This document shows positions 12,054-42,729 of a stretch of DNA of 42,729 bases, piece by piece. Position 1 is the stretch's first letter. The number at the start of each line of letters is the position of its first letter. This DNA is from a virus. A program made the translations under genes and the position numbers. The stretch is from IMG/VR virus record IMGVR_UViG_3300044498_000050; one strand, written 5' to 3'. The notes under the pieces were generated by a model that was not told the DNA's origin, ran no database searches, and saw nothing but the letters and a program-made list of their open reading frames with translations.

Positions 12054-15000
12054 TCAGGTTGACGTGAACGTGATGCCCGTCTTCTTGGCGAGCCACTGCT
12101 CCATGTCGGCAAGGGTCTGCGCCGTGGTGGCGGCATGCCTGAAGAACAGGCCGTACAGCCTGCCCTTGAAGGGCAGCGTGCTCCCGCCGCGCCGGCCCAT
12201 GTAGACCGGGAACGTGCCGTGCGGGCCGGTGCCCTGGTCGGCCAGTGTCTGCAGTGCCTGGACACCATCCACCCGGATGGCGGAGAAGTCCGAGGAGATG
12301 CCGGCCTGACACTGGACCACGTGCGTGCTGGGATGCGCCACGCCGTCCACGTCGAGCGTGGTGTCCACCGTGCCCTTGGACCGCCAGTAGAACCCGTCCA
12401 GGTCGCCGGGTGGTGCCTGGAGCGCCCAGGTGCCGACGTTGCCCGAGGAGGTTGCACTCAACTCGGCCACGAGGCCGACGCCCGTGTTCGTGTCGGTGAA
12501 CAGACCAGCCCAGAGGTTGATGATGCCGCCGCCCGCACCGAAGTTGGTGGATGCGCTGATCATCCAGTCGTCCACCCCGTCGAACTGGAGGGACCGCAGG
12601 CCACCGGAGTCGATGAAGGTCGGGCGCGAGCCCGCCGTGGCCTGAGTCAGGTGCAGCCCCCGGCCGCTCTTGTCCCTGATCAGTCCGACCGTCTGGCCCG
12701 AGGCCGTGACGGGGGTGGCACCGGCCGTGTCCTGGAACAGGGTGGACATGTCGCTCGGGTCGTACCAAGCCCCAAGCTCACCGACCGTGAACAGGTCGCT
12801 AGGCGTTAGGGAGATGGGAACCCCGGACTTCTCTGCCAGCCACCGTTCGATGTCGATCACGTGCTGCGCCGTGGACGCGAGGTTGCGCACGATGAGGCCG
12901 TACAGCCGGCCGCCGAAGGGCAGCGTGCTGCCGCCGCGCCGACCGACGTAGAACCCGAAGGTGCCGAAGTTGCCCGTGCCCTGGTCGGCTGATGCAGTTC
13001 CGGTCTGCACTCCATTCACACGTGCAATGTTGGTATCGCTCGATATGTCGGACTGCCCGGTGAAGACACTTGTGAACGATCCCGCCGTCACCGTGGACTG
13101 TGCCGTGCTGCCCGTCGCATTGGACCCACGGGAGCGGAAGTCGTAGCGGGCCGTGCTCGCCGGCTCCAGCAGGTAGAACGTGCCGGCGTTGGAGTCGAGG
13201 ATCGTGGAGTGCTCCATCATCATCTGATGGGCTGCCTTCTCCCCAGTCTTGTTGAACCCCAGCCAGACCGTGATGGCATCGCTCGCCGTCAACGACATGG
13301 GGTTGACGAGCATGAAGTCGTCGGTGCCGTCGAAGACCAGATGCGGCTTGCCGTTGGTGTCGATCTGGTAGATGGGCCGGTTGGCGGCCGTGGCCTGGAG
13401 GAGGTGGTTGCCCCGGCCACTCTTGTCATTGATCCTGGCAACCGACTGCCCGACCGTCGTGACAGGCGTCGTAGCGGCCGTGTCCTGGAACATGGTGGAC
13501 AGGTCGCTGGGATCCCACCAGCCGCCAAGCTCGCCGGCTGCGAACAGGTCGGGCGGGGAGATAGCCCCAGACGGCGGTGCCGTAGTGACGGCCTCCGCGA
13601 TGTTGGAGTACGGCCCCAGGTTGGGCACGGCATCCTCGGCACGCACCTGATACCGATAGGTAATGCCGGCCGTGAGCCCGGTGTCCACGAAGGGCGAGGC
13701 AGTGTCGGTACCTATCTGTGCGAAGTTTACACACGCAGCCCCGGTACACCGCTCGACCCTGTAGCCTGCGACTCCGACGTTGTCGGTGGCGGCCGTCCAG
13801 GTCAACGTGATCTGGGTGCCGCTATCAGGCGTCGCCACGAGGGACGTGGGTGCCGTGGGCGCGGTCTGGTCGGGCGTGAGTGCGGTCGCAATGTTGGAGT
13901 ACGGCCCCAGGTTGTTGGCCGCGTCCTGCGCACGGATCTGGTAGCGGTACGTGGTGTTCACCGTCCTGCCGGTGTCCACGTAGGGGCTGGCCGTGTCGGT
14001 GGCGATCTCCGCGAAGCTGGAGCAGGCGACGCCGGTACACCGCTCGATCCTGTACTGGGTGACGGCCACGTTGTCGGTGGCCGCCGTCCACGTCAGCGTG
14101 ATCTGCGTCTCGGAGTCGGGCGTCGCCACCAGGGACGTGGGCGCGGTTGGTGCGGTGTTGTCTGGCGTCGTGGCCGTGGCAATGGCTGAGTAGCCGCTGC
14201 GGTTGTTCGCCGCGTCGCGGGCACGCACCTGATACCGGTAGACCGTGTTGGCCGTCCGCCCGGTGTCGGAATAGTTCGTGACGGCCGGCGTGGCAATCTC
14301 CGCGAAGCTGGAGCACCCCGCGCCCGTGCAACGCTCCAGCAAGTAGGCAGTGACACCCACGTTGTCAGTCGAGCCCGTCCAGGTCAGGTCAACCTGTGTC
14401 TCGTTGACCGGCGTCGCCACGAGATTGCTGGGCGCGGTCGGTGCCGTGTTATCGGGCGTCGAGACTGAAGCGATGTTGCTGTAGCCGCTGAGATTGAGCG
14501 CAGCGTCCTGGGCACGGATCCGGTAGCGGTACGCCGTGGCGGCAGCCAGGGTGGCGTCCACGTAGGGCGATGCGTTGTCGGTGGCAATCTCCGCGAAGTT
14601 GACGCAAGCAGCGCCCGTGCAGCGCTCGATCCGGTACAGGGTAACGCCCACGGCGTCGGTCGAGGCCGTCCAGGTGAGGGTGGCCTGGGTCTCGGAGTTG
14701 GGCGTTGCCAGGAGCCCGGTCGGATCTGTCGGGGCCGTGCTGTCGGGCGGGACACCACCCGCCAAGGCCACGGCCCCCGTGGCCGTGATGGGGATGGCAT
14801 TGGGGGCATAGCGCACGGCCGCCGCGTTGGCGACCACCATGCGCCCCTGCTGGTCGATGGGGATGCCGGCCACGTAGGCCGTGATCGGGCCGGCGGACGA
14901 CTCGGCCAGCCGCCCAGGCGTGTCGTAGGACAGGCCAGCCAGCTTGGACAGGTTGGCCGTGGCCGTGGTGACCGTCAACTGGCGAGCAGCAGTCAGCGGC

Positions 15001-15098
15001 GTGCCGCCGTTGAACCCATCGGGCACGGTCACGTCCTCGACCGCCGCGATGATCTTGCCGGTGGCGTCTACGGTGGCGAGTGACCCGTTGAGCGGCAT
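12054..15098 (-). CDS. tail fibre protein 1 (anchor + 4 FN3 repeats + 2 LamG-like modules), 1014 aa
   Basis: Start MPLNGS at 15098 overlaps the upstream TGA (ATGA). Four ~97-aa repeats of type PDNTAPTAP..L.ATP..ETQ..LTW..STDNVGV..Y..ERC. Then two modules with FDG.DD...W, NGVQ and GRLYGL....A....W. Confidence 0.8.
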   Translation of the reverse strand: MPLNGSLATVDATGKIIAAVEDVTVPDGFNGGTPLTAARQLTVTTATANLSKLAGLSYDTPGRLAESSAGPITAYVAGIPIDQQGRMVVANAAAVRYAPNAIPITATGAVALAGGVPPDSTAPTDPTGLLATPNSETQATLTWTASTDAVGVTLYRIERCTGAACVNFAEIATDNASPYVDATLAAATAYRYRIRAQDAALNLSGYSNIASVSTPDNTAPTAPSNLVATPVNETQVDLTWTGSTDNVGVTAYLLERCTGAGCSSFAEIATPAVTNYSDTGRTANTVYRYQVRARDAANNRSGYSAIATATTPDNTAPTAPTSLVATPDSETQITLTWTAATDNVAVTQYRIERCTGVACSSFAEIATDTASPYVDTGRTVNTTYRYQIRAQDAANNLGPYSNIATALTPDQTAPTAPTSLVATPDSGTQITLTWTAATDNVGVAGYRVERCTGAACVNFAQIGTDTASPFVDTGLTAGITYRYQVRAEDAVPNLGPYSNIAEAVTTAPPSGAISPPDLFAAGELGGWWDPSDLSTMFQDTAATTPVTTVGQSVARINDKSGRGNHLLQATAANRPIYQIDTNGKPHLVFDGTDDFMLVNPMSLTASDAITVWLGFNKTGEKAAHQMMMEHSTILDSNAGTFYLLEPASTARYDFRSRGSNATGSTAQSTVTAGSFTSVFTGQSDISSDTNIARVNGVQTGTASADQGTGNFGTFGFYVGRRGGSTLPFGGRLYGLIVRNLASTAQHVIDIERWLAEKSGVPISLTPSDLFTVGELGAWYDPSDMSTLFQDTAGATPVTASGQTVGLIRDKSGRGLHLTQATAGSRPTFIDSGGLRSLQFDGVDDWMISASTNFGAGGGIINLWAGLFTDTNTGVGLVAELSATSSGNVGTWALQAPPGDLDGFYWRSKGTVDTTLDVDGVAHPSTHVVQCQAGISSDFSAIRVDGVQALQTLADQGTGPHGTFPVYMGRRGGSTLPFKGRLYGLFFRHAATTAQTLADMEQWLAKKTGITFTST
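13583..14747 (-). repeat. four tandem fibronectin-type-III-like coding repeats (~291 nt each; boundaries approximate)
   Basis: Repeat units are visible in the translation (LTWTASTD.., LTWTGSTD.., LTWTAATD.. twice), each with an ERCTGxxC pair of cysteines. Confidence 0.75.
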
Positions 15099-16462
15099 CA
15101 ATGCTCCAGTGCGTTTACACGCTCCCGCAGGCACTGAAGCTCGCGGATCATCAGCGGCACCAGCTTGGCGTTGTCCATGCCCCAAGGCATCGGCCCATCA
15201 GGACTGTCCCAACCGGGCGACACAGCCCCAGGGAAGACACCGTACACGTCCTGGGCGATCAGGCCGACCGGCACGTGGGCGCCATCGAGCTTCCAATCGA
15301 ACGAGACCACGGGGATGTTGTCGATGATCTTGCCCACGTCCTTGACTGGCCTGACGTTCTTCTTCATCCGAGCGTCAGATGAAGTGCTGTAGAACGTGCT
15401 GGTAAGGGTCGGATGGTTGATGTAGCCGGCCACGGTGACGTTGAGGCGGAAGGTCATGCTCGCGCCAGAGTTATCCACTCGCTGCGCCAAGTAGTTCGAT
15501 GAGACATCACCAGCAAGCGTGCCGACGACAGCAAGGCCGTTCCCTCCAGGTCCAACCCAGTTGACGGTGAACTGCGCGGCTGAAGCTGCTCCGTTGACAG
15601 CAACCTTGCCAGTGGACTCGATCCGCATGCGCTCCGACTGGTTGTTGAAGAACAGCATGGGGCTGACAAGCTCATTGACGATAAAGAAGTTATCGTCAGT
15701 GCCGCCGCTGCCGTACCCGATGTAGCCCTTGCGACCACTCGGGTCGAAGAACGACATGTACGCATTGCCGCCACCACGGGCTTGCGTGGACTCCAGGCGC
15801 ATCAACTCGGTTGAAGACCGGACGTGCAACGGCGCGAGCGCTATCGGCGCTGTAGGACCGATACCAACAAAGCCAGTCGGCTGAATGATCAGCCTTCCTG
15901 CGTTGCCCACGAGGAGGTACAGGGGCTGCGCGTCATGCGTCCCCAGGGCCGTGCTGCCACTCGTTGCCGAGAACAGGGCCTTGCGGACACCTCCCACGTA
16001 GAGGTTGATCCACGCCTTGGCAGTGCCGCCAATGTCGATAGTTGTCTCCCCGGCCACGGGAGGCGTGGTCACGGCCATGCCGACGCCGATGCTGCCGCCG
16101 AAGGCCGGCGCGGCAACCGGGCCGGTGATCGTGCCGAGAAGGGTCACATTGCCAAGCGTCGTGCCGTTGGCGTTCCACGTCTGCTGGGCCACCCCCTGGA
16201 TGGACATGCCGATCACGCCCGAAGACTGGCGGAACAACCCGCTGCTCGGCTCGGCAATGAAGGACAGGCTCGGCGCCGCCGCCGATCCGTCGGTCAGCCT
16301 GAAGGGGGCCGTCATGCCGCCCATGCCCGAGCGCGACAGCGAGTCGTCCAGGGTCGCCGCGATGTCGGCCAACGTATCGTTCGCCCACTCCGACTCGATG
16401 ACGGTGTTGGGTTCTACAGGAGGCAGCGGCAGCGTGTAGGCACCGGATACGTTACGAGGCAT
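15098..16462 (-). CDS. tail fibre/spike with C-terminal S74-type intramolecular chaperone domain
   Basis: C-terminal SSDARMKKNVRPV...VVSFDWK...GLIAQDV...L.RVNALEH matches the self-cleaving chaperone (Peptidase_S74) signature S-D-x-R-x-K. GGAG RBS. Confidence 0.8.
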   Translation of the reverse strand: MPRNVSGAYTLPLPPVEPNTVIESEWANDTLADIAATLDDSLSRSGMGGMTAPFRLTDGSAAAPSLSFIAEPSSGLFRQSSGVIGMSIQGVAQQTWNANGTTLGNVTLLGTITGPVAAPAFGGSIGVGMAVTTPPVAGETTIDIGGTAKAWINLYVGGVRKALFSATSGSTALGTHDAQPLYLLVGNAGRLIIQPTGFVGIGPTAPIALAPLHVRSSTELMRLESTQARGGGNAYMSFFDPSGRKGYIGYGSGGTDDNFFIVNELVSPMLFFNNQSERMRIESTGKVAVNGAASAAQFTVNWVGPGGNGLAVVGTLAGDVSSNYLAQRVDNSGASMTFRLNVTVAGYINHPTLTSTFYSTSSDARMKKNVRPVKDVGKIIDNIPVVSFDWKLDGAHVPVGLIAQDVYGVFPGAVSPGWDSPDGPMPWGMDNAKLVPLMIRELQCLRERVNALEH

Positions 16463-29991: not shown

Positions 29992-32145
29992 TTAACCCTG
30001 TGGCGGCATCTCGGGCGGCGGCTGCATCGGCGGATTGCCAGGAGGCGGCGGAAGGCCCCCGGGAGGCCCTCCAGGCCCCGGAGGGCCGCCCGGGGGCCCT
30101 GCGGCTCCTGGCGGGCCGCCTGGGCCCCCTGGCGGGGGCATCTCGGGCGGAGGCTCGGGCGGGATGGCCGGCTGGACACCCATCTGCTGCGCCGCCGCCA
30201 GATCCAGGCCAGCGCTGACCCTCTTCTCCAGCGCTGTGGCGCGCGACTGGTCGGCGCTTGCCTTGTCCTTCTCGACCTTCGCCTCCTGCTCGGGGTCGGG
30301 CTTGGCCGGCGGCGGCTGGCTTGCGGCCAGGATGGCCTGATCGAGCACGGTCTCGATCTCCTTGGAGACCCTGAAGCCGCCCAGGCCCCACTTCATCATC
30401 TGCAGCAGCACCGGCACGGCCGTCGGCATGGTCTGCATCATGGTGCCGGTGTCGGACAGGAAGCCGCCGACGGCTTCCATGAACTGGGTGCGGCTGTCGC
30501 GCTCCTGCGCCCAGTCCACCATCGCCATGGTCTCGCTCTCGACCGTGATGCGGTACTTCTTGCTCTCGGCGCCGCTCTTGAGGTACTCCACGGCCTGCTG
30601 GGCCATGGGTGCGTCCTCGGACAGCATGATGTTTGAACGCTCGATGATGGTCTCGGCCTGGAAGTGGTAGCAGAAGATCTGGCTCCTGATGCGCTGGCCG
30701 GCGGCCACCCAGCACCCGATCTGCTGCTGCTTGAACTGCAGGCGGTTGCCACCGAACTGCGCTTTAAGCTGCTGCGCCCCGAGGGTCTCGTCGGGGTTCG
30801 TCATGCCACGCATGATGTCCCCGATCCCGAGCACCTCGTAGAGCGTGCCCTTGTGGGACTCGCGCTCCGCCGTCAAGCGCTCGATCACGCCGGCCACCAC
30901 GTCGATGGGCACGAAGTCGATGGACCCCTTGATGCCGCCCTTCTCCGCGAAGGCGGCCCAGTTGTCCACCGGGATCATCTGGTTCTCCAGGCCCTCGCTG
31001 AAGATGCGCCCGAGCGGCGTGCTGGTCTTGTCGTAGGCGCCGACCACCTTGCAGGCGCGGATGAGGTACTTCAGGCGCGTGGATAGCTCATCGATCTGGC
31101 TGTACTGGTCCTGGGCCATCAGGTAGTCGGCCCGGGGCATCAATTTGGACGTGGTGGTGTTGGCGATCAGCGGCTGCGGGCACGGGAAGAAGCCCCGGAG
31201 CTTCATCGGGTCTTCCTTGTGGTCGCAGATCAGGTTGTAGCCCATGACGTGCCAGTAGGCGCACTTGGTCGTCTTGTCCCAGATCTCAAAGACGCCCGCC
31301 TTCTCCCACGGGTCGTTCTGCGGCGAGATGTTGTCGCCACGGGCCTTCTGCTTGCTGATCGGCACGTCCTTGCCGATCTTGTCCCCGAAGCGCGCTATCA
31401 ACTCCTCGCGGTTCATGTACACGCGCCGCGCCACCCAGCGCACGTCCTGCCAGACCCTGGCCGGCGACCACCAGAAGTCTTCCCAGTAGACGTAGTCGGC
31501 CGGCGCGTCCTCGTGCGTGACGGCCTCGTACTCCACGGGCTCGGCCAGGACCACCTGGGACTCGGGATCGATCACGGGCTCGGTGCTGGTCTTCTCGGTC
31601 TCGACCTCGTAGCGGTACCAGACCTGTCCCAGGCCGACGATCAGGTAGTCGCCTACCGCCTGCCGCGTGATCTCCGGGTAGGTGCTCTCGTCGTCTTCTT
31701 CCACGTCGTTGTTGAGCATCCTCTGGAGGATGTTGCCCGCCACGCGTGCCACGTCGTCGTTGCTGTCCTTGTACGCGTTGCTGACATCGACCTTCGGCGG
31801 CTTCGCATACAGGCTCGACTTCAGCACCTCGGTGTTGGACCAGAACAGGTTGATCTTGCTGTCCGCGTTGTCGAGCGCAGCGCTGTCGCGCTCGTCCAGG
31901 TAGCGATGCACGAGGCGCCTGCCTTGCGTATGGAACTTGCTGAGTTCCTTCTTGGCGGCCTGGAGTTCCTTCTCCCACACCTCGGCCAGCTTGGTGGGAT
32001 CCTTCTTGGCCTCCTTGGCCTGCTTGTCAGGAAGCTGCTTGCCGGCCTCGACCTTGGACTTGGGGCTGCCCCCTTGCTTGGCGTAGCCTTGGGATTCGTC
32101 ACCAGGAACTGGAGGTTGGCCTGGAACCGGAGGTTGCATGGGCAT
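29992..32145 (-). CDS. portal protein candidate (717 aa) with Pro/Gly-rich C-terminal tail
   Basis: Directly downstream of terL (TGATG overlap), with a size typical of a portal. The last ~70 aa are PPEPPPEMPPPGGPGGPPGAAGPPGGPPGPGGPPGG... Confidence 0.65.
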   Translation of the reverse strand: MPMQPPVPGQPPVPGDESQGYAKQGGSPKSKVEAGKQLPDKQAKEAKKDPTKLAEVWEKELQAAKKELSKFHTQGRRLVHRYLDERDSAALDNADSKINLFWSNTEVLKSSLYAKPPKVDVSNAYKDSNDDVARVAGNILQRMLNNDVEEDDESTYPEITRQAVGDYLIVGLGQVWYRYEVETEKTSTEPVIDPESQVVLAEPVEYEAVTHEDAPADYVYWEDFWWSPARVWQDVRWVARRVYMNREELIARFGDKIGKDVPISKQKARGDNISPQNDPWEKAGVFEIWDKTTKCAYWHVMGYNLICDHKEDPMKLRGFFPCPQPLIANTTTSKLMPRADYLMAQDQYSQIDELSTRLKYLIRACKVVGAYDKTSTPLGRIFSEGLENQMIPVDNWAAFAEKGGIKGSIDFVPIDVVAGVIERLTAERESHKGTLYEVLGIGDIMRGMTNPDETLGAQQLKAQFGGNRLQFKQQQIGCWVAAGQRIRSQIFCYHFQAETIIERSNIMLSEDAPMAQQAVEYLKSGAESKKYRITVESETMAMVDWAQERDSRTQFMEAVGGFLSDTGTMMQTMPTAVPVLLQMMKWGLGGFRVSKEIETVLDQAILAASQPPPAKPDPEQEAKVEKDKASADQSRATALEKRVSAGLDLAAAQQMGVQPAIPPEPPPEMPPPGGPGGPPGAAGPPGGPPGPGGPPGGLPPPPGNPPMQPPPEMPPQG

Positions 32146-33509
32146 CAGATCCTCCCGTTGCGCTGGTTATGCGGATTGACCGTGGCGTGGAGCATGTCGA
32201 GCGTGAACGTGTGGCTCAACGGCGGGATTATGGGCTCCTGCCGTGCCGGTGCCGGCGGATCGAGCACGTTGAGCCTCGCCGCCCCCTCCATGTACGCGTC
32301 AGCCGGGTGGCTGGCCCAGTTGTGCTCTGGCTCCGACGAGAACGTCTTGGTCTCCTCGTCGTACTTGTAGGCATAGGCCCGCATCGCCATCAGGAACGGC
32401 TCGCAGACCGGCGCGTTGCTGATGCGCACCCGCCGCAGCATCAAGCGCCCCGCGTTCACAGAGTCAGACTTGCGCCTTTGCTCGTTTACACGAACTTCGC
32501 ACTTGTCCCAGGGAGGCTGGCGGAGGAAGGTCTCGACGCTGGAGCGCTTGGACTGGAACGTCTTGACGCGTGCGTCGTGGGGCAGCACGAGCACGTCGGC
32601 GCGGGGTTGCTTGCTGAGGCGGGCGGCCCACTCCTCGGCGTCCATGCCTGACCCATCGTCGTAGTGGAAGATCTCGTAGCCGCCCTTCAGCCGGCGCCAC
32701 CACACGAAGGCTGCCTTGTCGCGGTAGCCGATGTCGCTTGTGACCCAGACCTCGCCTTCCTGGGAGTTGTCGATGGGACAGATCCGCCCTTCCTTCTCCA
32801 TCTGCTCGATGTAGCGCCCGAAGATGGCGCCCACATTGGCGGCGGAGAAGTCGCAGTCGTACTCCTGGCGATAGAGTTCATCGGGCATCTCCGCGCGCTC
32901 GTCGTTGAGCACGGATTCAGGTATGTGCTGGGTGTCCTTGACGGTCAGGTGGGAGTGGAACCACGCCGGGTTCTTCTTCGCCAACTGCATGATGTCGTGG
33001 AAGTGGTTGTAACCCCGGGGTGTGCTGATGAAGGCTGCCCAGCCTCCGTTGCCGGCAAGGATCGGGCGGAATATGGACCACGCCCGGGGATCCGAGAGGG
33101 CGGACTCACTCATCACGAGGCCGAAGGGGTTGGCGCCGACGATGCTGTCGTAGTAGTCCGAGCCCACAAGCTGCCAGATCGCGCCGTTCTTCAGCGTGAT
33201 CTTCATCTCTGTCCTGTTCGTGTCCTGCCGGATGCTCTGGGGCATCGCGGTATCGATGATCTTCTGGCCGTTGTTATCGAAGCCGTCCCAGATGACCTTC
33301 CTGGCCTGCTTGTGGTTGGGCAGCATGTGGAAGTACATGCCTGGGCGTTCAAACATCATCTTGACGGTCTGGTGGACCATCGTCAGATCCTTGCCGTAGC
33401 GCCTCGGCCAGCAGGCGGCCGCCCTCAGGCCGCCGTGGTCGAAGTAGCGCATCAACTCCTTCTGCGGCGGCCTGGGCGTGAACCCGTTGGGCAGGATCAG
33501 GTCGGTCAT
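32145..33509 (-). CDS. terL: terminase large subunit
   Basis: N-terminal ATPase-like CWPRRYGKDLT (Walker A-like) and GLVMSESA (Walker B-like). Size 454 aa, immediately upstream of the portal. I prefer the MTDLILP start at 33509 because it forms ATGA with the upstream stop. Confidence 0.75.
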   Translation of the reverse strand: MTDLILPNGFTPRPPQKELMRYFDHGGLRAAACWPRRYGKDLTMVHQTVKMMFERPGMYFHMLPNHKQARKVIWDGFDNNGQKIIDTAMPQSIRQDTNRTEMKITLKNGAIWQLVGSDYYDSIVGANPFGLVMSESALSDPRAWSIFRPILAGNGGWAAFISTPRGYNHFHDIMQLAKKNPAWFHSHLTVKDTQHIPESVLNDERAEMPDELYRQEYDCDFSAANVGAIFGRYIEQMEKEGRICPIDNSQEGEVWVTSDIGYRDKAAFVWWRRLKGGYEIFHYDDGSGMDAEEWAARLSKQPRADVLVLPHDARVKTFQSKRSSVETFLRQPPWDKCEVRVNEQRRKSDSVNAGRLMLRRVRISNAPVCEPFLMAMRAYAYKYDEETKTFSSEPEHNWASHPADAYMEGAARLNVLDPPAPARQEPIIPPLSHTFTLDMLHATVNPHNQRNGRI

Positions 33510-33616
33510 ATGAACAGGCCGCCCAGCCACCATGCCAAGTGGACACCCAGCCAGACGGCCGCCAAACCGGTGATCACGTACATGATCACCTGGAACCAGA
33601 CGGGCGGCTCCTTCAT
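33506..33616 (-). CDS. 36-aa membrane peptide
   Basis: MKEPPVWFQVIMYVITGLAAVWLGVHLAWWLGGLFI. The ATG overlaps the upstream TGA by 1 nt and its own stop overlaps the terL ATG. Confidence 0.45.
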   Translation of the reverse strand: MKEPPVWFQVIMYVITGLAAVWLGVHLAWWLGGLFI

Positions 33617-34274: not shown

Positions 34275-34907
34275 TCAAGCATGATGGACCCATATCGCAG
34301 GCGCGGCCTGCTCGATGACGCCAAGAGCCCGAGCATCGTCGCGGATGAACGGGGCCATGTGCCATGATGGCACATAGATGCGTTTAAACCCCAGGTTCTC
34401 AAGCACGGCGCTGTCGGGCGCGTCGTACTGCAGCGTACGCACGAAGGCCGTGGACGCATCGAACACGTCCAGGACCAGGATGGTGCCGTTGGTGGCCGCC
34501 ATGGCGCGGTCGAGCACCTTCGGCACGTTGCAGTGGCCGAGCACGTAGGCCAGCACGGTGATGTCGAACGGCTTGGCCGCGTCGGGCAGCACGTAGTCGT
34601 GGGCGTCGCACAGGACGCGCAGGCCGCCGGCCTGGACAAGCTCAAGCTGACTCGGGCTGCGGTTGACCAGGGTGAAGCGCAGATCCGGGCGCTCATCCTG
34701 CCAGTACGCCTCCATGCCGGCGACGCCGCAGCCCAGGGAGAGGATCCTGGCCTTGTGGGGCGGCGCCAGCAGATCGAGCACCGCATGCGAGTGCAGGCGC
34801 TCGTCGGTGTCCAACTGCCATAGCTGGAAGACCGTGCGGCCCTGGTCGAGATGCTCGCGTGTCGCCTGCTCGACCTCGACCTCGTCGTCGTAGAGCGGAT
34901 GGGTCAT
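34275..34907 (-). CDS. class I SAM-dependent methyltransferase (substrate unknown)
   Basis: Motif I ARILSLGCGVAG. Downstream FDITVLAYVLGH and GTILVLDVF are typical of the Rossmann-fold MTase core. No DPPY/NPPY or cytosine-5 motifs seen. The MTHPLYDD start forms ATGA with the upstream stop. Confidence 0.65.
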   Translation of the reverse strand: MTHPLYDDEVEVEQATREHLDQGRTVFQLWQLDTDERLHSHAVLDLLAPPHKARILSLGCGVAGMEAYWQDERPDLRFTLVNRSPSQLELVQAGGLRVLCDAHDYVLPDAAKPFDITVLAYVLGHCNVPKVLDRAMAATNGTILVLDVFDASTAFVRTLQYDAPDSAVLENLGFKRIYVPSWHMAPFIRDDARALGVIEQAAPAIWVHHA

Positions 34908-35425
34908 CCGTCGTTCCAGTCGCGCCAACCGCTATCGCCCGGTTGCATGCCCACGCACGCACGCACCTCGGCTTGCAGCTTGAGCATGCGCTGCTGATGC
35001 CGCTCGCCCATGCTGCGGGCATGCGCAGACGCCTGGGCCTGCTTGGCCTCGACCTCGGCCGCGAACATGGCGTGCTGCTCCGCTTCGCGCAGGCGCTTCA
35101 ATGCCGCCGCCAACTCGGCCTCGATCTCGGCATCGTCCAGGCCGACCACCCCTGCGGTACCGCACAGGACGGGCATCACCTTCGCACGCTCCATGTACCC
35201 GGAGTACGAGACCACGGCCTCCAGGCGTCCCGCCTGCAGGTCGCGCTCGCGACCAGCGTGGTCGCTCTTGGTCATGTGGGTGAGGCCGATGTACCTGCGC
35301 CTGGGGGCGCGCTGGCCGCAGGCGTCGGCCGGCATCGGCTCGCCCCACCAGCGGTTGTACTCGCAGGCGAGACCGTTGAAGTCTGGGGATGTTGCAGGGG
35401 GATAACCCATCATGTGGTCGCGCAT
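34904..35425 (-). CDS. hypothetical protein (173 aa) with C-terminal coiled coil
   Basis: Track ORF. First gene downstream of the iteron array. No recognisable motif. Confidence 0.5.
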   Translation of the reverse strand: MRDHMMGYPPATSPDFNGLACEYNRWWGEPMPADACGQRAPRRRYIGLTHMTKSDHAGRERDLQAGRLEAVVSYSGYMERAKVMPVLCGTAGVVGLDDAEIEAELAAALKRLREAEQHAMFAAEVEAKQAQASAHARSMGERHQQRMLKLQAEVRACVGMQPGDSGWRDWNDG

Positions 35426-35529
35426 GGTGCAAGCCTCAGGTTACATGGTCCGGTGGAATGGGTAAAATTTGGATGGGAACGTATGGTACCCAATCCAACA
35501 TGCGCGAGCGGGGATCGAATGCATCAGCC

Positions 35530-35690
35530 GACGCGCATATAAGCGCATGCGCATATAGGCGTACGCGCATGTACTACGTACGTCCATGCGCGTACTACGT
35601 ACGTCCATGTCAACATGGACGTGCGTAGTACTACGTACGTCCATGTCACTACGTACGTCCATGTCACTACGTACGTCCATGTCAGCCCCA
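35530..35690. repeat. iteron array: six copies of an ~18-bp unit ACTACGTACGTCCATGTC (one inverted) plus GCGCAT(ATA) repeats
   Basis: Direct copies at 35573-35588, 35594-35610, 35629-35647, 35648-35665 and 35666-35683. Inverted copy at 35613-35631, forming a 10-bp perfect palindrome with 35601-35610. GCGCAT at 35533, 35543, 35549 and 35565. Confidence 0.9.
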
Positions 35691-35721
35691 GGCTTGCGAT
35701 TACGCGTAACGTTAATGCGCA

Positions 35722-36096
35722 TCATGCGACCTTATGCACGACCACGGTAAGAGCGCCGCCGGCCGCACCTGTGACCTCTGATCGTGTGAGCTTGGGCGCC
35801 GCGAACTCCGCGAAGTGGCCGAGCGCACGAGCGGCGCCTACAGGATCCGGGGGGCGTGCGGGATACATGAGCTTGCCGTGCGCATCGTAGGTAGCTGGCG
35901 CGCCTTCGGCTATCTGCTCGACCCACTTGCGCACGTTATCCCTGTTGTCGTCGAGCAGGCGCTGTACCGTCTCCCGGAATTCGGTCGTGACCTTGTTAGG
36001 CGTGCCCTTGGCACGGCCGGCAGGCCGTGTGCCCTTAGCGGGTCCGCGCTTCTTAGGTTCGCCTACTGTAGGTTGCATGCCCATGGTCGCGAGCAT
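35722..36096 (-). CDS. terminase small subunit-like DNA-binding protein (start uncertain: 36096, 36084 or 36078)
   Basis: KKRGPAKGTRPAGRAKGTPNKVTTEFRE... followed by a helical region and ...APKLTRSEVTG. This resembles a small-terminase family I recall with a GRxKGxxNK N-terminus. It is the first gene of the minus arm. Confidence 0.45.
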   Translation of the reverse strand: MLATMGMQPTVGEPKKRGPAKGTRPAGRAKGTPNKVTTEFRETVQRLLDDNRDNVRKWVEQIAEGAPATYDAHGKLMYPARPPDPVGAARALGHFAEFAAPKLTRSEVTGAAGGALTVVVHKVA

Positions 36097-36499
36097 AGGC
36101 GCATGCTGCCGGCCTTGCAATCCCTGCCTAGGCAGTGAATTTTCACTCCTGGGCAGGCCGGCCGGCACCTGCAAGTACAGGCGCCGACACAGGCGCTCAG
36201 CCGCAGCCCCAGGATGGTTTCCCATAGGGCAGCCGGCCGGCCGACACAGCGACCCAGACCCATCCACCCCGTTTTCTATATACCCCCCCTAAAAAGCCGT
36301 AAGTAAATGTACACTTATCATCCTAACTCTCTCTTATATAGAAGTGCCTGTGTCGGCAGTGTCGGCAGTGTCACCCCTATAGGTTTTCACCCTGGGGTGC
36401 GGCTGTGTCGTGCCTGTGCCGGCCTGTGCCGACGGCCTGCCGGCAAAGAAAATGTGTAACAGTCCTCAGCCTGGGGCTACAGGTGCCGATAATGAAGAC
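36097..36499. promoter_or_regulatory. divergent early/late control region with AT-rich core and repeated operator-like motif
   Basis: This is the only extended AT-rich stretch in the genome (about 36271-36345, containing TATATA twice). CTGTGTCGGC-type repeats lie on both sides and in both orientations. The two arms diverge from here. Confidence 0.6.
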
Positions 36500-36856
36500 A
36501 TGAACACAGCACTGCTCGACACGGCCACCCCACAGGCCGAACCCCAAGCGCGCAAGCGCGGCCGGCCTGCCAAGTACGCAAGCGCAGCCGAGCGTCAGGC
36601 CGCATACCGTGCGGCGAACACCATCAAAACCTATCGCATCGACGGCAAGGCTGCCGGCACTGTGGCCGAGCTTGCGGCGCTGTACGAGTGCGATGAGACG
36701 CACGTCGTGAACAACTTGCTGCGCTTTGCGCTTGCGAATCGCAACTGGCGCGCCATGGGAATCGGTGGATGGGACATCACCGACAAGCGCCACGCTAGCG
36801 GCAAGCGCGCGGCACCCGTTCGCGACGATTCCCTTGATAGCTTTTCGTTCGTTTAA
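36500..36856 (+). CDS. small DNA-binding-type protein (start uncertain; alternative ATG at 36449)
   Basis: RKRGRPAKYASAAERQAAYR is an AT-hook-like GRP motif that recurs in small phage/plasmid regulators. First gene of the plus arm. Confidence 0.5.
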   Translation: MNTALLDTATPQAEPQARKRGRPAKYASAAERQAAYRAANTIKTYRIDGKAAGTVAELAALYECDETHVVNNLLRFALANRNWRAMGIGGWDITDKRHASGKRAAPVRDDSLDSFSFV

Positions 36857-36961
36857 ACGTAACAATTCAAGATAGCGCTAAAGCCTGAGGCTGCGGCGCC
36901 GATAATACTAGGGAGGGGGCAGACAGGCTCCCACCCTTAAACCTAAGTCTGAAAGTTGAAC

Positions 36962-37750
36962 ATGGCCAAATTCTCTAAGCTCTTCGTCGCACAGTGCGCA
37001 GCACTCGGCCTGCCGGCAGCTAACGGCTACACCATATACGAAGGCCCGTCGGCGCTTGATGGCGCGCCTATCGTCGTCATTGCGCTCGTGAAGTCGTCCA
37101 ATCGCAAAACCGGAAACATGGTGCAGACATACGTGCTGACGCAAGCCACCCGGCCGACGGCTGCCGTGAAGAGCGGCGCCGATGCATCGATATGCGGCGA
37201 CTGCAAGCATCGCCCGTTTCTTGGCGGATCCTGCTACGTGGTGGTCGCACAGGGACCGACCGTCGTGTACAAGCAATGGCAAGCCGGCGCTTACCCGCGC
37301 GCTACGGCTGCGCAAGTCGGCGCACTGCTGGCAGGCCGCATGGTGCGCATCGGCACGTACGGCGACCCTGCGGCCGCACCCGTCGGCCTGTGGCAAGCCC
37401 TTGTCGCACAGGCCGCAGGCCGCACAGGCTATTCGCACCAGTGGGCGAACCAAGCTCTCCCGGCTGCCGACCGCGCGGCGCTCGCCAAGCTCGTGATGGC
37501 ATCGGTCGACAGCGCCGAAGAGGCTGCGGCCGCTCGTGCTGCCGGCCTGCGGTACTTTCGCGTGATGCATGCCAGCGAAACCCTTGGCGCGCGTGAATTC
37601 GCCTGTCCCGCTAGCGAAGAGGCAGGCAAGCGCACCACGTGCGACAAGTGCCGAGCCTGTGACGGATCCGACCGTGCCGGCAAGGCTTCGCCCGCTATCG
37701 TTGCCCATGGCGGCAAGGCTGCCCGATTCATTCCCATCCTGAGCGTGTAA
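36962..37750 (+). CDS. conserved Cys-rich phage protein (GP88-like by recollection), function unknown
   Basis: ICGDCKHRPFLGGSCYVV ... RIGTYGDPAA ... TGYSHQW ... CPASEEAGKRTTCDKCRACDG gives two Cys clusters suggesting metal binding. Confidence 0.55.
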   Translation: MAKFSKLFVAQCAALGLPAANGYTIYEGPSALDGAPIVVIALVKSSNRKTGNMVQTYVLTQATRPTAAVKSGADASICGDCKHRPFLGGSCYVVVAQGPTVVYKQWQAGAYPRATAAQVGALLAGRMVRIGTYGDPAAAPVGLWQALVAQAAGRTGYSHQWANQALPAADRAALAKLVMASVDSAEEAAAARAAGLRYFRVMHASETLGAREFACPASEEAGKRTTCDKCRACDGSDRAGKASPAIVAHGGKAARFIPILSV

Positions 37751-37821
37751 ACGCTTCACGCTAGCCCCAGGGTTAGCCCCTGGGGTACACTTCCCCCCGA
37801 ACCATCAAAGGATCCCGCACC

Positions 37822-38205
37822 ATGCAAGCATTCAACGCCGACAGCATCACGTTTACCGGCAGCACGGAAGCCGTAATGACCACGTACACAGGCCACGACG
37901 GGTTTCCCGATGAGCCTGTCACCGAATACCTGCCTGTCGTTTACGCGCAAAACCCGCACGGCGACAGGAAAGGATGCTTTCTAGGCAAGGCGCGCCACAG
38001 TTGCCACGTGGCCGAAGAGGCTGCCGACAAGTGCGCTCGTGCGCTTGCCGCTCGTGCTGCTGCCGGCCTGCTGCCTGTCGGCTTCGTCACTGGCGCGCAC
38101 TGGTTCACCGCGCGGCCTGTGTACGGATCCGATGCTTACGTTGAGTACGGACAGGCCGACGACCTCGCATGGGAAGCCCGCGAAGAGGCCGACGACAGGA
38201 TCTAA
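37822..38205 (+). CDS. hypothetical protein (127 aa)
   Basis: Track ORF with AAAGGA RBS. Preceded by a hairpin plus TACACT element. Confidence 0.5.
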   Translation: MQAFNADSITFTGSTEAVMTTYTGHDGFPDEPVTEYLPVVYAQNPHGDRKGCFLGKARHSCHVAEEAADKCARALAARAAAGLLPVGFVTGAHWFTARPVYGSDAYVEYGQADDLAWEAREEADDRI

Positions 38206-38696: not shown

Positions 38697-38704
38697 CCCC
38701 ACTC

Positions 38705-38734
38705 TTGACATGGAGAAGCCTGGGGCTGCATAAT
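38705..38734 (+). promoter_or_regulatory. sigma70-like promoter candidate TTGACA-N18-CATAAT
   Basis: TTGACA at 38705-38710 and CATAAT at 38729-38734. It overlaps a 9-bp inverted repeat GGAGAAGCC/GGCTTCTCC and lies 41 nt upstream of ATG 38776. Confidence 0.45.
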
Positions 38735-38775
38735 ACGGCTTCTCCCCCACCACACCACACCACAAGGATCCGATC

Positions 38776-41131: not shown

Positions 41132-42187
41132 GTGAAATTGAAACTCTGTGACCTCAAGGCGAACCCGTTTCGCCACCTCGCCCGGTACCCGCTGGACGAG
41201 CGCAAGATCGAGGCCCTCATGGGCTCGATCAACCAGACCACGTTCTGGGACAACCTGATGGCGCGGCCGACCGCCAACGGCCAGTACGAGATCGCATACG
41301 GGCACAACCGCCTGGAAGCGCTGCGCCGCCTCAAGGTCAAGGAGATCGACATCCCGGTGCGCGACCTGTCCGACGACGACATGGTGCGCATCATGGCGAA
41401 CGAGAACATGGAGGAGTGGTCGCACTCGTCCAAGATCGAGCAGGAGACCATCCGCACCGTGGTCGAGGGTTTCGCCGCCGGCAAGCTGCATCTGCCGAAA
41501 CCTCCGAAGAATGGAACGAGGCACGCTCGCCATGCGCCGACTTTCAGTATCGCGGAGGTAGACTCCTCGAGCAGTCTAGCCTACACCGTGAGCACCCTGT
41601 GCGAGTACCTGGGCAGCGGCTGGAGGGAGTACAAGATCGAAGCTGCACTCAATGCCCTGGAGATGATCGAGAGCAGCGTGGCTGACGAGTCGGTGTTCGA
41701 TGACCTGACCACCAAGCAGGCCCAGGTTGTCACGCAGCAGACGAAGCGGGTGCTCAAGGAGACCGGCGACACGAAGCTGGCCGGCAACATCGCCAAGGAA
41801 CTGGCCGGCGGCATGAAGAAGGCCACCACCGGCACGCGCACGGATGGCGGCAAGGCCAAGCTGCAGGACGTGACCATCCACAATGCCAAGCGCGTCACCG
41901 ACGAGATGCTGGGCAAGCACACCCGCAAGATAGCGCCGCCGAAGACGCTGCCCGACATCAACGGCTTCGCCCACGACATCGCGCACGAACTGCTCAAGAC
42001 CATCGACCAACAGTTCGGCGGCAGGCTGGATGCCGTGATCGAGCACGCCGAGCACCTGAGTGTCGACGCCCGCGAAGACCTCACCAAGGAACTGATGCGC
42101 GCGGCCAAGCGCCTGCGCGAAGCTGCCGAGTCCCTCAACCGTGCGAAGCCGGCCCCGGCCCAGCAGGATCCCCTCAGGCTCAACTAA
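41132..42187 (+). CDS. ParB N-terminal domain (ParB-like nuclease/CTPase fold) protein, GTG start
   Basis: L.ANPFR...YEIAYGHNRLEALRRL...IPV matches the ParB/Srx-fold core (G-H-x-R-x-x-A). The C-terminal 220 aa are helical and unassigned. GAAGGA RBS. Confidence 0.65.
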   Translation: MKLKLCDLKANPFRHLARYPLDERKIEALMGSINQTTFWDNLMARPTANGQYEIAYGHNRLEALRRLKVKEIDIPVRDLSDDDMVRIMANENMEEWSHSSKIEQETIRTVVEGFAAGKLHLPKPPKNGTRHARHAPTFSIAEVDSSSSLAYTVSTLCEYLGSGWREYKIEAALNALEMIESSVADESVFDDLTTKQAQVVTQQTKRVLKETGDTKLAGNIAKELAGGMKKATTGTRTDGGKAKLQDVTIHNAKRVTDEMLGKHTRKIAPPKTLPDINGFAHDIAHELLKTIDQQFGGRLDAVIEHAEHLSVDAREDLTKELMRAAKRLREAAESLNRAKPAPAQQDPLRLN

Positions 42188-42198
42188 AGGAAGCCACC

Positions 42199-42729
42199 AT
42201 GAATAGCCAACCTATACAGCCGCACCTAAGCGAGCGCGACGACGCCAACTCGCGCGATGTGTGCGATGCCATCGGCAACCTCGTAAACAAGCTCGTGCCC
42301 CATGGCTTGCCCGTGCCACTCACCTTGCGGCAGGTAGCCCAAGGCTTGCTGACCATCGACCAGATGGATCCCGAGACAGGCGTCGTCCATCCTCACCCCG
42401 GCGGCGCTGCCCGTGCCCGCCTTGCCCACTTCCTGGCCGACCTCATGCCGGATCGCAACATCTTCAAGGGTGGCTACAAGTTGTACATGGAGCGCAATGG
42501 GCTGCCTGTGGTGCCGGTGTGCTCGTGGTTTTTCGATAACGTGTACGCGCCGGCCGACGATGCCCTGTTGCAGCTACCGGGCATGACCAAGGCCGAGGTC
42601 AAGGAAGCGTTGCCGCGTGCTGGAGCACCTACAGCCGGCATCGTGATATTCCCCAAGGGATCGGAGCATCGCTTGCTCTACACCTTCGTGATGCACAAGA
42701 GCGCACGGACCCTGGGCATGGTGGACGCC
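42199..42729 (+). CDS. hypothetical protein, 5' portion of the junction-spanning gene (about 230 aa in total; continues to 265)
   Basis: ATG 42199 after AAGGAAG. The frame is open to the window end and so is not in the track. It continues through the duplicated 127 bp. Confidence 0.6.
   Translation, partial: MNSQPIQPHLSERDDANSRDVCDAIGNLVNKLVPHGLPVPLTLRQVAQGLLTIDQMDPETGVVHPHPGGAARARLAHFLADLMPDRNIFKGGYKLYMERNGLPVVPVCSWFFDNVYAPADDALLQLPGMTKAEVKEALPRAGAPTAGIVIFPKGSEHRLLYTFVMHKSARTLGMVDA
42603..42729. repeat. 127-bp terminal overlap, identical to 1-127
   Basis: Read directly. Confidence 0.95.

Follow-up and report, generated by a model that had tools for sequence, protein, structure and literature searches.

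What is the role of a dense array of short repeats which lies beside a terminase gene in a phage genome, and is its position enough to recognise a packaging site or a replication origin? The question is raised by the window analysed here, a whole stretch of 42,729 nucleotides (IMG/VR record IMGVR_UViG_3300044498_000050), in which a non-coding gap between a small-terminase-like (TerS-like) gene and the next gene, g173, is filled with copies of an 18-bp repeat. The original prediction considered that such an array must be either a pac/cosB-type terminase site or an origin, and that the choice would fix the genome ends; according to our analysis this is not supported, as relatives with homologous terminase and replication genes do without the array. 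From comparison of the related sequences we are rather inclined to suggest that the repeats belong to an acquired accessory cassette of several kinds of predicted protein-binding sites, which would be neither the main pac site nor the main origin. Other contigs are given below by our L numbers.

Both genes flanking the gap are on the minus strand, so the array is located 3' of the TerS-like gene, directly downstream of it as was noted earlier, and 5' of g173. A scan of the window with the 18-mer ACTACGTACGTCCATGTC, in which up to 3 mismatches were allowed and the expectation was taken from 100 shuffles, gave six matches in the gap, five direct and one inverted, with 0.00 expected, and no further match anywhere in the rest of the genome. 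The six repeat copies originally described for the gap are therefore borne out, including the spaced ones starting at 35573 and 35594 (2 and 0 mismatches), only four of the six being perfect; the three perfect tandem copies are also present, starting at 35630 and not at 35629, as is the inverted copy, whose position is 35612-35629 and not 35613-35631. The palindrome around CA described earlier is real (ACGTCCATGT-CA-ACATGGACGT at 35601-35622) and sits in 19-nt arms, 95% complementary, with a 2-nt spacer between them (35592-35610 and 35613-35631). We designate the unit A, a 15-18-bp iteron with a ACGTACGT dyad; ACGTACGT and TACGTA are confined to the array within this genome. Both alternating purine-pyrimidine tracts (61% of a 200-bp window versus a mean of 3.3%) and 6-bp palindromes (18 per 200 bp versus a mean of 3.5) reach their genome maximum in the array region. 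Restriction-site avoidance was rejected as a cause of the palindrome density, ACGT, GTAC, CATG and GCGC not being depleted in the rest of the genome.

Two other classes of elements accompany the A block. The four GCGCAT repeats reported before are found at 35533, 35543, 35549 and 35565, and are better described as 2.5 copies of a 16-nt period, the B repeats, which consist of long alternating purine-pyrimidine runs and contain the GCGCATGCGC palindrome at 35543. A single 23-bp element, box C, carries an ACGTYC half-site resembling that of the A unit, and is followed by an AT-rich patch on the g173 side: the 60-nt window from 35441 is 55% AT, percentile 99.3 of the genome, the genome maximum being elsewhere, at 36272-36372. 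The AT-richness of this patch is preserved in all lineages and its sequence only in part. Coordinates of the features and the architectures of the related arrays are collected in the table.

Table. Features of the TerS-like/g173 gap of the window, listed in gene orientation, and arrangement of A and B units in the window and in related phages (A> direct, A< inverted).
Feature	Position	Strand	Remarks
TerS-like gene	35722..36096	-	124 aa in public assemblies; basic GRxKGxPNK arm then three helices
Non-coding gap, TerS-like stop to g173 start	35426..35721 (296 bp)	-	~265 bp (roughly 35430-35695) = cassette missing in close relatives
Relic of ancestral TerS-g173 spacer, TGCGCATTAACGTTACGCGTAATCGC	35696..35721	-	homologous to 28-30-nt spacer of array-less relatives; ribosome-binding site decayed
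Border motif AAGCCTGGGGCT, AGCC-N3-GGCT palindrome	35684..35695	-	TerS-proximal cassette edge
Three perfect tandem A iterons	35630..35683 (35630-35647, 35648-35665, 35666-35683)	-	0 mismatches; gene orientation GACATGGACGTACGTAGT
Inverted A iteron	35612..35629	+	2 mismatches; near-perfect 40-bp palindrome with copy 35594-35611
Spaced A iteron	35594..35611	-	direct, 0 mismatches; 21 bp from next copy
Spaced A iteron	35573..35590	-	direct, 2 mismatches, both in 3-nt linker; 15-nt core perfect
B repeats	35531..35570	.	16-nt period, 2.5 copies; 10-bp palindrome GCGCATGCGC and TATA-type linkers
Box C, single copy	35477..35499	-	GTTGGATTGGGTACCATACGTTC in gene orientation; GGTACC dyad
AT-rich patch between box C and g173 ribosome-binding site	35441..35476	.	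TTTTACCC-type run
Second border motif AACCTGAGGCTTG (gene orientation)	35430..35442	-	g173-proximal edge; inverted relative to first
g173, first gene past cassette	34904..35425	-	present also in array-less relatives
Architecture, window (gene orientation)			A> A> A> A< A> A> / B
Architecture, L022 (gene orientation)			A> A> A< A> A> / B
Architecture, L019 (gene orientation)			A> (degenerate A<) A> A> / B B
Architecture, L038 (gene orientation)			A> A> A> A> A< A> / B B
Architecture, L039 (gene orientation)			B / A< A> A> (partial A<) A< / B B B B
Architecture, L074 (gene orientation)			A> (partial A<) A< A< A> A> / B B B

Six lineages possess the array at the same junction, namely the window phage, L019, L037/L038, L039, L040 and L074/L075; in L040 it is incomplete at a contig end, and complete arrays are available in the four others, each with 3-6 A units to compare with six in the window. 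Copy number, orientation and spacing of these units differ between lineages (tandem copies number 3 in the window, 2 in L022, 1 in L019 and 4 in L038), and the inverted copy is the least conserved unit, being degenerate in L019. The 15-nt core ATGGACGTACGTAGT is the same in all direct copies except one from L074 with a single mismatch. Perfect GCGCATGCGC cores, up to four in the relatives, are always beside the A block, with a ~16-nt period in most lineages, and the order past the B block is constant: a GC-rich spacer, box C, the AT-rich patch and the g173 ribosome-binding site. The box C consensus GTTGSATTGGGTACCATACGTYC is invariant across five aligned lineages at 21 of its 23 positions, the L074 copy having one difference from the 18-mer core used for scanning. 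Among the gap-free columns of the proximal cassette half, invariant ones make 21/23 in box C, 17/25 in B and 30/97 (31%) in all the others, and between the window and L019 identity amounts to 95% in the iteron block and to 53-76% in the coding DNA on its flanks. Since A, B and box C are far better conserved than the rest of the cassette, selection seems to act on discrete DNA sites, which indicates that the array is a set of predicted protein-binding sites under site-specific purifying selection. We infer that the notion of a protein-loading array, present already in the original prediction, holds in view of the strict conservation of A and box C, compared with a third-codon-position identity of 48-82% in the neighbouring genes between the window and the other array-bearing lineages.

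Can the conservation be explained by a gene, coding for the repeat peptide DMDVRS..., or by a structured RNA? One frame, starting in the window from the ATGA overlap with the TerS stop, is open through the cassette in five of five lineages, and RNA of the cassette folds more stably than its shuffles (z = -5.6). However, the open reading frames (ORFs) spanning the array have a third-position G+C content (GC3) of 0.58 and 0.66 versus ~0.85 for real genes, two of the three frames contain no stop in the repeat units whichever way these are oriented, the stops vary in position, and in L039 box C falls in a different frame with its DNA unchanged. On these grounds we consider the region to be not coding, and the earlier dismissal of these ORFs as artefacts is confirmed by the low GC3 and by box C surviving the frame change; public gene callers also place no gene in the gap. 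The stability of the RNA hinges on the poorly conserved inverted copy, and Rfam returned only precursor models of microRNA (miRNA), 20-32 bits versus thresholds of 55-100, that is sub-threshold miRNA-hairpin noise. A coding or RNA function is hardly probable from these data. Inside the cassette the promoter and terminator scan revealed neither a sigma-70-type promoter nor an intrinsic terminator for the gene strand, and it gave one plus-strand promoter-like match whose spacing, by our reading of the relatives, is not conserved in them. Sigma-54, extracytoplasmic-function and T7-like promoters, dif/Xer and protelomerase sites were considered by eye for box C, the B repeats and the palindrome, and none of them fits; the central GTCAAC of the palindrome is not symmetric.

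The distribution of the cassette is the part of the evidence which speaks to its origin. It is missing in L032, L033-L036, L005-L007, L041-L044 and L076, where the next gene starts 0-30 nt past the TerS-like stop, and the array-less TerS-like proteins are close to that of the window (81% identity for L032 by BLAST and 74% for L033-L036), TerL being ~85% identical. Neither an A site, nor ACGTACGT, nor box C was found in the DNA of L005, L032, L033, L035, L041, L044 and L069 (up to ~25 kb); the array-less L033/L069 phage possesses homologous DUF2800 nuclease, PolA, primase-helicase and SNF2 genes and lacks all three elements, A, B and C, over ~25 kb of its DNA. Alignment of the junctions gives the ancestral spacer of array-less phages as ...GGAATTGC-CACC-ATG, and array-bearing phages have the same spacer with a decayed ribosome-binding site, followed by the cassette, a new GAGG ribosome-binding site, which is included in the second border motif, and (T)TGCACC-ATG. 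The cassette edges are two inverted AGCC-N3-GGCT copies with TTGC-like tetranucleotides on both sides, 4 bp being too short for significance. Taken as it stands, this looks like a derived ~265-bp insertion gained by one sub-lineage, and a mobile origin of the cassette is possible.

It would be logical to ask if the insertion is a selfish or formerly mobile element, similar to miniature inverted-repeat transposable elements (MITEs), with inverted AGCC-N3-GGCT ends, a possible 4-bp TTGC duplication and repeats without any function for the phage. Bacterial BOX and Correia-type elements are modular repeats with variable internal tandem number. The cassette is also modular with a variable tandem number, its insertion is clean, with inverted border motifs and TTGC-like tetranucleotides at both sides, and it has a patchy spread among mosaic relatives; with pneumococcal BOX, Neisseria Correia and mycobacteriophage MPME elements it shares the character of a small non-coding insertion with inverted ends, possible short target duplication and variable units, which affects the ribosome-binding site of the neighbouring gene. 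Unlike those, it is known from a single locus, its internal sites are strongly selected, and the border motif is the phage's own, being a general intergenic motif of this phage, so that the terminal inverted repeats are possibly incidental; a duplication of 4 bp is, as said, too short to be significant. No second genomic context was found for the cassette in IMG/VR, metagenome contigs, 185,579 species genomes or plasmids. There was likewise no DNA-level match of the region to GenBank phages in near and distant modes, or to PLSDB plasmids, and searches of IMG/VR for the exact iteron, B unit and box C gave only single chance matches in unrelated contigs. With A, B and C conserved far above the rest of the cassette, arguing for a phage function, we regard a purely selfish element as improbable.

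Another possibility, to which we would give low weight, is that the cassette is a portable self-contained cis-acting module bounded by inverted motifs and inserted into a phage operon. Should it be so, the recipient would obtain, with these binding sites and the replacement ribosome-binding site, a new platform for loading proteins; it might, for example, work as an additional origin, enhance packaging, or act as a decoy which titrates a DNA-binding protein of the host or of a competitor. Such an element, transposable or recombination-borne, could be called a 'site cassette' in distinction to a gene cassette.

In its anatomy the cassette resembles most closely an iteron origin, and in its position a terminase site, and both have to be weighed against the comparative data. 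As a terminase recognition site (pac, or cosB with a cosN-like part) it would be bound at A or B by the TerS-like protein, which would bend the DNA and let TerL cut nearby, for example at box C, and packaging would begin from it. Phage lambda cosB has several ~16-bp sites, one of them inverted, plus a distinct site ~100 bp away. The cassette recalls lambda cosB (R1-R3 for gpNu1, with IHF) and SPP1/SF6 pac (boxA, boxB, boxC) in being a repeat cluster with an inverted copy beside the small-terminase gene, and box C, single and ~100 bp off, could correspond to the cut site. To this can be added that the region is a variation hotspot, that homologs of the nearby p264 are terminus-proximal in other phages, and that the nearest characterised TerL relative, Mx9, is a headful packager from pac (PMC10281127). 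The packaging class itself cannot be assigned from TerL, its nearest relatives being too distant (37% identity for Mx9 and BUCT555, ~24% for T5-like phages).

The terminase function of the TerS-like gene at 35722-36096 is plausible by synteny only: in two GenBank phages and nine IMG/VR loci its homologs immediately precede TerL on the 5' side, often with an overlap of the two genes. This part of the earlier TerS label stands, while support from protein families, PDB sequences or folds was not obtained, as there was no significant match in Pfam, PHROGs, NCBIfam or a PDB sequence profile search, and an AlphaFold2 (AF2) monomer model (predicted local distance difference test, pLDDT, 74) gave no significant Foldseek match in PDB. 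In the protein a disordered basic arm is followed by three helices, and the family is well conserved in alignment.

Several observations speak against recognition of the cassette by this protein. The cassette is found on the 3' side of the TerS-like gene, rather than 5' or within as in cosB and pac, and there is no co-variation with the TerS subtype: the subtypes of window/L038 and L039/L019 are 71-73% identical, yet the iterons are invariant in both, whereas the array-less L032 has a TerS-like protein 77-81% identical to the window subtype, closer than the two array-bearing subtypes are to each other. The cassette, A sites and box C are missing at a TerS-like identity of 74-81% and a TerL identity of ~85%. 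SPP1 pac has its direct repeats in three sets, and the DNA-binding domain of SPP1/SF6 TerS reads its repeats nearly non-specifically (PMC4737164); those repeats are short and moderately conserved (PMC4737164), while the units here are longer and far more strictly conserved, with an invariant 15-nt core. Moreover, by analogy with the same divergent layout elsewhere, the terminus would be expected 5' of TerS, in the divergent region. We find a terminase site rather unlikely.

Alternatively, the cassette may be an iteron-type origin, primary or auxiliary, where an initiator would bind A, auxiliary factors would bind B and C, and the AT-rich patch would melt and load the RepB-primase/VapE helicase. 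Iterons of lambda and of plasmids are repeated units with an internal dyad, direct and inverted, in variable copy number. The 18-bp units with a dyad, in 3-6 direct and inverted or partial copies varying between relatives, compare well with the 17-22-bp units of lambda ori, RK2, pSC101, P1, IncQ/RSF1010 oriV and P4 ori/crr; the succession of iterons, a GC-rich spacer and an AT-rich patch in the 99th genome percentile is similar to IncQ oriV, and a protein of the phage unites a RepB-type primase domain with a helicase, P4 ori/crr being bound by its own primase-helicase. The distance to the early/late divergent control region, 0.4-0.9 kb, also speaks for this reading. In contrast to known iteron origins, however, the tandem spacing of the window is 18 bp, not about two helical turns, there is no adjoining initiator-like gene, the flanking proteins having no Rep-like family match, and the most AT-rich DNA of the genome is ~600 bp off, in the divergent region, which has another, symmetric repeat architecture present in every relative compared.

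The array is also not accompanied by any particular form of the replication proteins. Relatives with the same replication module lack the cassette, and primase-helicase identity to the window is 73% in array-bearing L037/L068 and 66% in array-less L033/L069; for the C-terminal ~125 residues, the expected place of an origin-binding domain, it is 50-62% and 58-73%, respectively, so the array tracks neither the protein nor its C-terminal tail. PolA (2366-4441) is 34% identical in array-bearing L068 and 75% in the more distant, array-less L069, and is thus swapped within the array-bearing group. The absence of A sites from any other place in the genome and of similarity to any PLSDB plasmid also counts against an origin of this kind, to which, primary and auxiliary forms together, we give a somewhat better but still low chance. 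Apart from this question, the L068 phage with its distant PolA has a TerL 96% identical to that of the window, which shows PolA exchange between close relatives, and ParB_N, p92, p85 and p71 are present or absent among the relatives in a mosaic manner.

The ParB_N protein (41132-42187, 351 aa) raises the possibility of a centromere-like partition site and a plasmid-prophage lifestyle. Centromeres are arrays of direct and inverted repeats of variable copy number, and F sopC, P1/N15 parS and R1 parC resemble the array in having partly palindromic units in variable number, with a ParB_N gene in the genome here. They differ in that no ParA or sign of a plasmid-prophage lifestyle was detected in the window phage (no ParA, integrase or repressor among the proteins scanned, mainly from the early and replication regions); only the N-terminal domain of the protein matches ParB models, far below the family cut-offs, and the array-bearing L068 lacks a ParB_N homolog. 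For the latter reason we reject the partition function, which is very improbable.

What, then, could bind the sites? As the array does not track TerS-like, primase-helicase, PolA or ParB_N proteins, the iterons appear to be indifferent to the variants of these candidates, and the binder is probably none of TerS-like protein, primase-helicase and ParB_N protein; more likely candidates are a factor of the host and linked early proteins, for instance p264 or p127. The only genes co-occurring with the cassette are p264, p127 and the methyltransferase gene. The methyltransferase, whose homologs occur also in array-less L005-L007, is a generic class-I S-adenosylmethionine (SAM) enzyme with no DNA-methyltransferase signature. 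The Cys-rich p264 (36956-37750) belongs to PHROG 2554, with a weak DUF7227 match, a widespread family of phage hypothetical proteins, and in phages whose termini are defined (Caulobacter phage S2B, Roseobacter phage CRP-118 and many mycobacteriophages) its homologs are ~0.1-3 kb away from a physical end of the genome. Neither g173 nor p264 had a match among PDB sequences.

We propose the following sequence of events, in which every step stays conditional. A cassette of ~265 bp would have been inserted in the short TerS-like/g173 spacer in one sub-lineage within a group of uncultivated soil phages, bringing three classes of elements, A iterons in 3-6 copies, up to four B palindrome cores and one 23-bp box C. 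Dimers of a sequence-specific DNA-binding protein would occupy the A units, a second specificity would serve B and possibly C, and the resulting nucleoprotein complex would stand at the head of the late operon of packaging and morphogenesis. As for the process served, an iteron-type auxiliary origin, the best anatomical fit, and a gate controlling transcription or replication on entry to the late operon are two possibilities we would name with equal caution, and an auxiliary packaging-initiation site or packaging enhancer seems somewhat less probable than either.

Five considerations weigh against the proposal of an accessory cassette apart from the main signals. The absence of a gene-strand promoter or terminator from the cassette leaves a transcriptional role without direct support. 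An A-like array may exist elsewhere in the array-less genomes, as the scan covered ~25 kb of one such genome. The location beside the TerS-like gene is what is expected of a packaging signal, and Mx9, with 37% TerL identity, is a headful pac packager. The terminal position of p264 homologs in other phages fits a terminus somewhere near this region; together with the Mx9 evidence it would agree with a packaging start in the neighbourhood, without singling out the cassette. Finally, co-occurrence of p264, p127 and methyltransferase genes with the cassette may reflect linkage alone, because all are within 4 kb.

Nevertheless, compared across relatives, the cassette fails the tests expected of a primary origin or pac site. 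If it is indeed an accessory cassette, a dense iteron array beside a terminase gene cannot be assumed to be pac or an origin, and comparative data can overturn such an inference made from array position. It would also present a non-coding site module gained as a unit within a mosaic hotspot, and a compact target in the search for a new DNA-binding specificity, with three invariant motif classes and natural copy-number variants. The universal signals, in turn, would on the accessory reading have to sit in DNA common to the array-less relatives, and most plausibly they are in the divergent region at 36.1-36.5 kb or in the TerS-like gene, where annotation of this genome should first look for the packaging start and origin.

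This divergent region, between the TerS-like gene and p148 (36097-36500), is located 0.4-0.9 kb from the cassette and contains the most AT-rich DNA of the genome (36272-36372). The AT-rich core has an inverted TTCTATATA/TATATAGAA pair and is flanked by opposed 10-mer copies, GCCGACACAG at 36183 and 36240 and CTGTGYCGRC at least 5 times at 36348-36433. The divergent layout is common to 7 of 7 lineages compared, array-bearing or not, as is the p148 promoter element AGCCTGGGGCT...GATAAT within it, and the short flanking repeats are lineage-specific; such would be the behaviour of a co-evolving protein-site pair, and the region is a candidate for a universal origin, operator region or packaging start. 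The TerS-like gene together with p148, p264 and p127 (35722-38205) has a GC3 of ~0.70 versus ~0.85 elsewhere in the genome, which points to a module of distinct composition around the divergent region, possibly an exchanged one.

The window itself represents a complete, circularly assembled phage genome with a unique length of ~42.6 kb and ~64% G+C. Positions 1-127 repeat 42603-42729 exactly, an assembler k-mer overlap, and as such an overlap reflects circular assembly, the window ends are uninformative on physical termini. Contig ends were in general rejected as terminus evidence, given this overlap and the breaks of Logan contigs inside the tandem block, which have assembly (repeat) reasons. 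The plus strand carries, from ~36.4 kb across the window ends to ~8.9 kb, early and replication genes, among them those for a DUF2800 nuclease, PolA, RepB-primase/VapE helicase, SNF2 helicase and a VRR-NUC protein. The late genes occupy the minus strand, beginning at 36.1 kb and ending at ~9 kb, in the order TerS-like, gap, g173, class-I methyltransferase, small genes, TerL (32145-33533, 1.9 kb from the cassette) and portal. The same phage is present in at least 10 public metagenome samples, and eight further assemblies of it have an identical gap, the exception being L022 with one tandem unit fewer (278 bp).

The border motif deserves a separate remark. AGCC-N3-GGCT (AAGCCTGGGGCT) is enriched genome-wide, with 29 matches versus 5.2 expected, and occurs in almost every early intergenic gap (35684, 36467, 36881, 37763, 38226, 38716 and others). 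One copy is inside the spacer of a near-consensus TTGACA-N18-CATAAT promoter at ~38700-38735, and further copies are within hairpins or upstream of GCCGATAAT; it could serve as an operator, as part of a promoter or as a boundary of the cassette. Among array-bearing phages with an identity of 89-96% in TerL, portal and p264, the neighbouring g173 reaches only 54-64%. Its N-terminal two-thirds are fast-evolving, while the C-terminal ~45 aa (AHARSMGEAHQQRMLKLQAE...GDSGWRDWNDG) are invariant even in array-less phages, and six homologs only were found in 5.8 billion proteins.

A paired-iteron pattern search of metagenome and species-genome collections gave one true homolog (L019), and the other arrays it returned are unrelated and uninformative on function. 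Among them, the low-GC contigs L016, L017, L018, L020 and L021, the last four from Prevotella/Segatella, carry 22-23-bp tandem arrays with the core ACGTACGTCCATG, and the L020 units include the full 12-bp palindrome GGACGTACGTCC. The L020 and L021 arrays are in chromosomal intergenic DNA beside genes for a TonB-dependent receptor, an outer-membrane protein and glutamate dehydrogenase, both loci being called chromosomal from neighbours matched to protein families. The ACGTACGTCCATG resemblance may be coincidental, the search pattern itself having demanded the core twice.

Repeats of other kinds are found inside late genes. A tandem repeat at 13678-14714 (291-nt period, 3.6 copies, 71% match) lies within a 1043-aa minus-strand ORF, 12054-15185, which probably encodes a repeat-containing tail fibre or spike protein, and short tandem repeats at about 30049-30139 encode the proline/glycine-rich low-complexity tail at the C-terminus of the portal (29992-32145).

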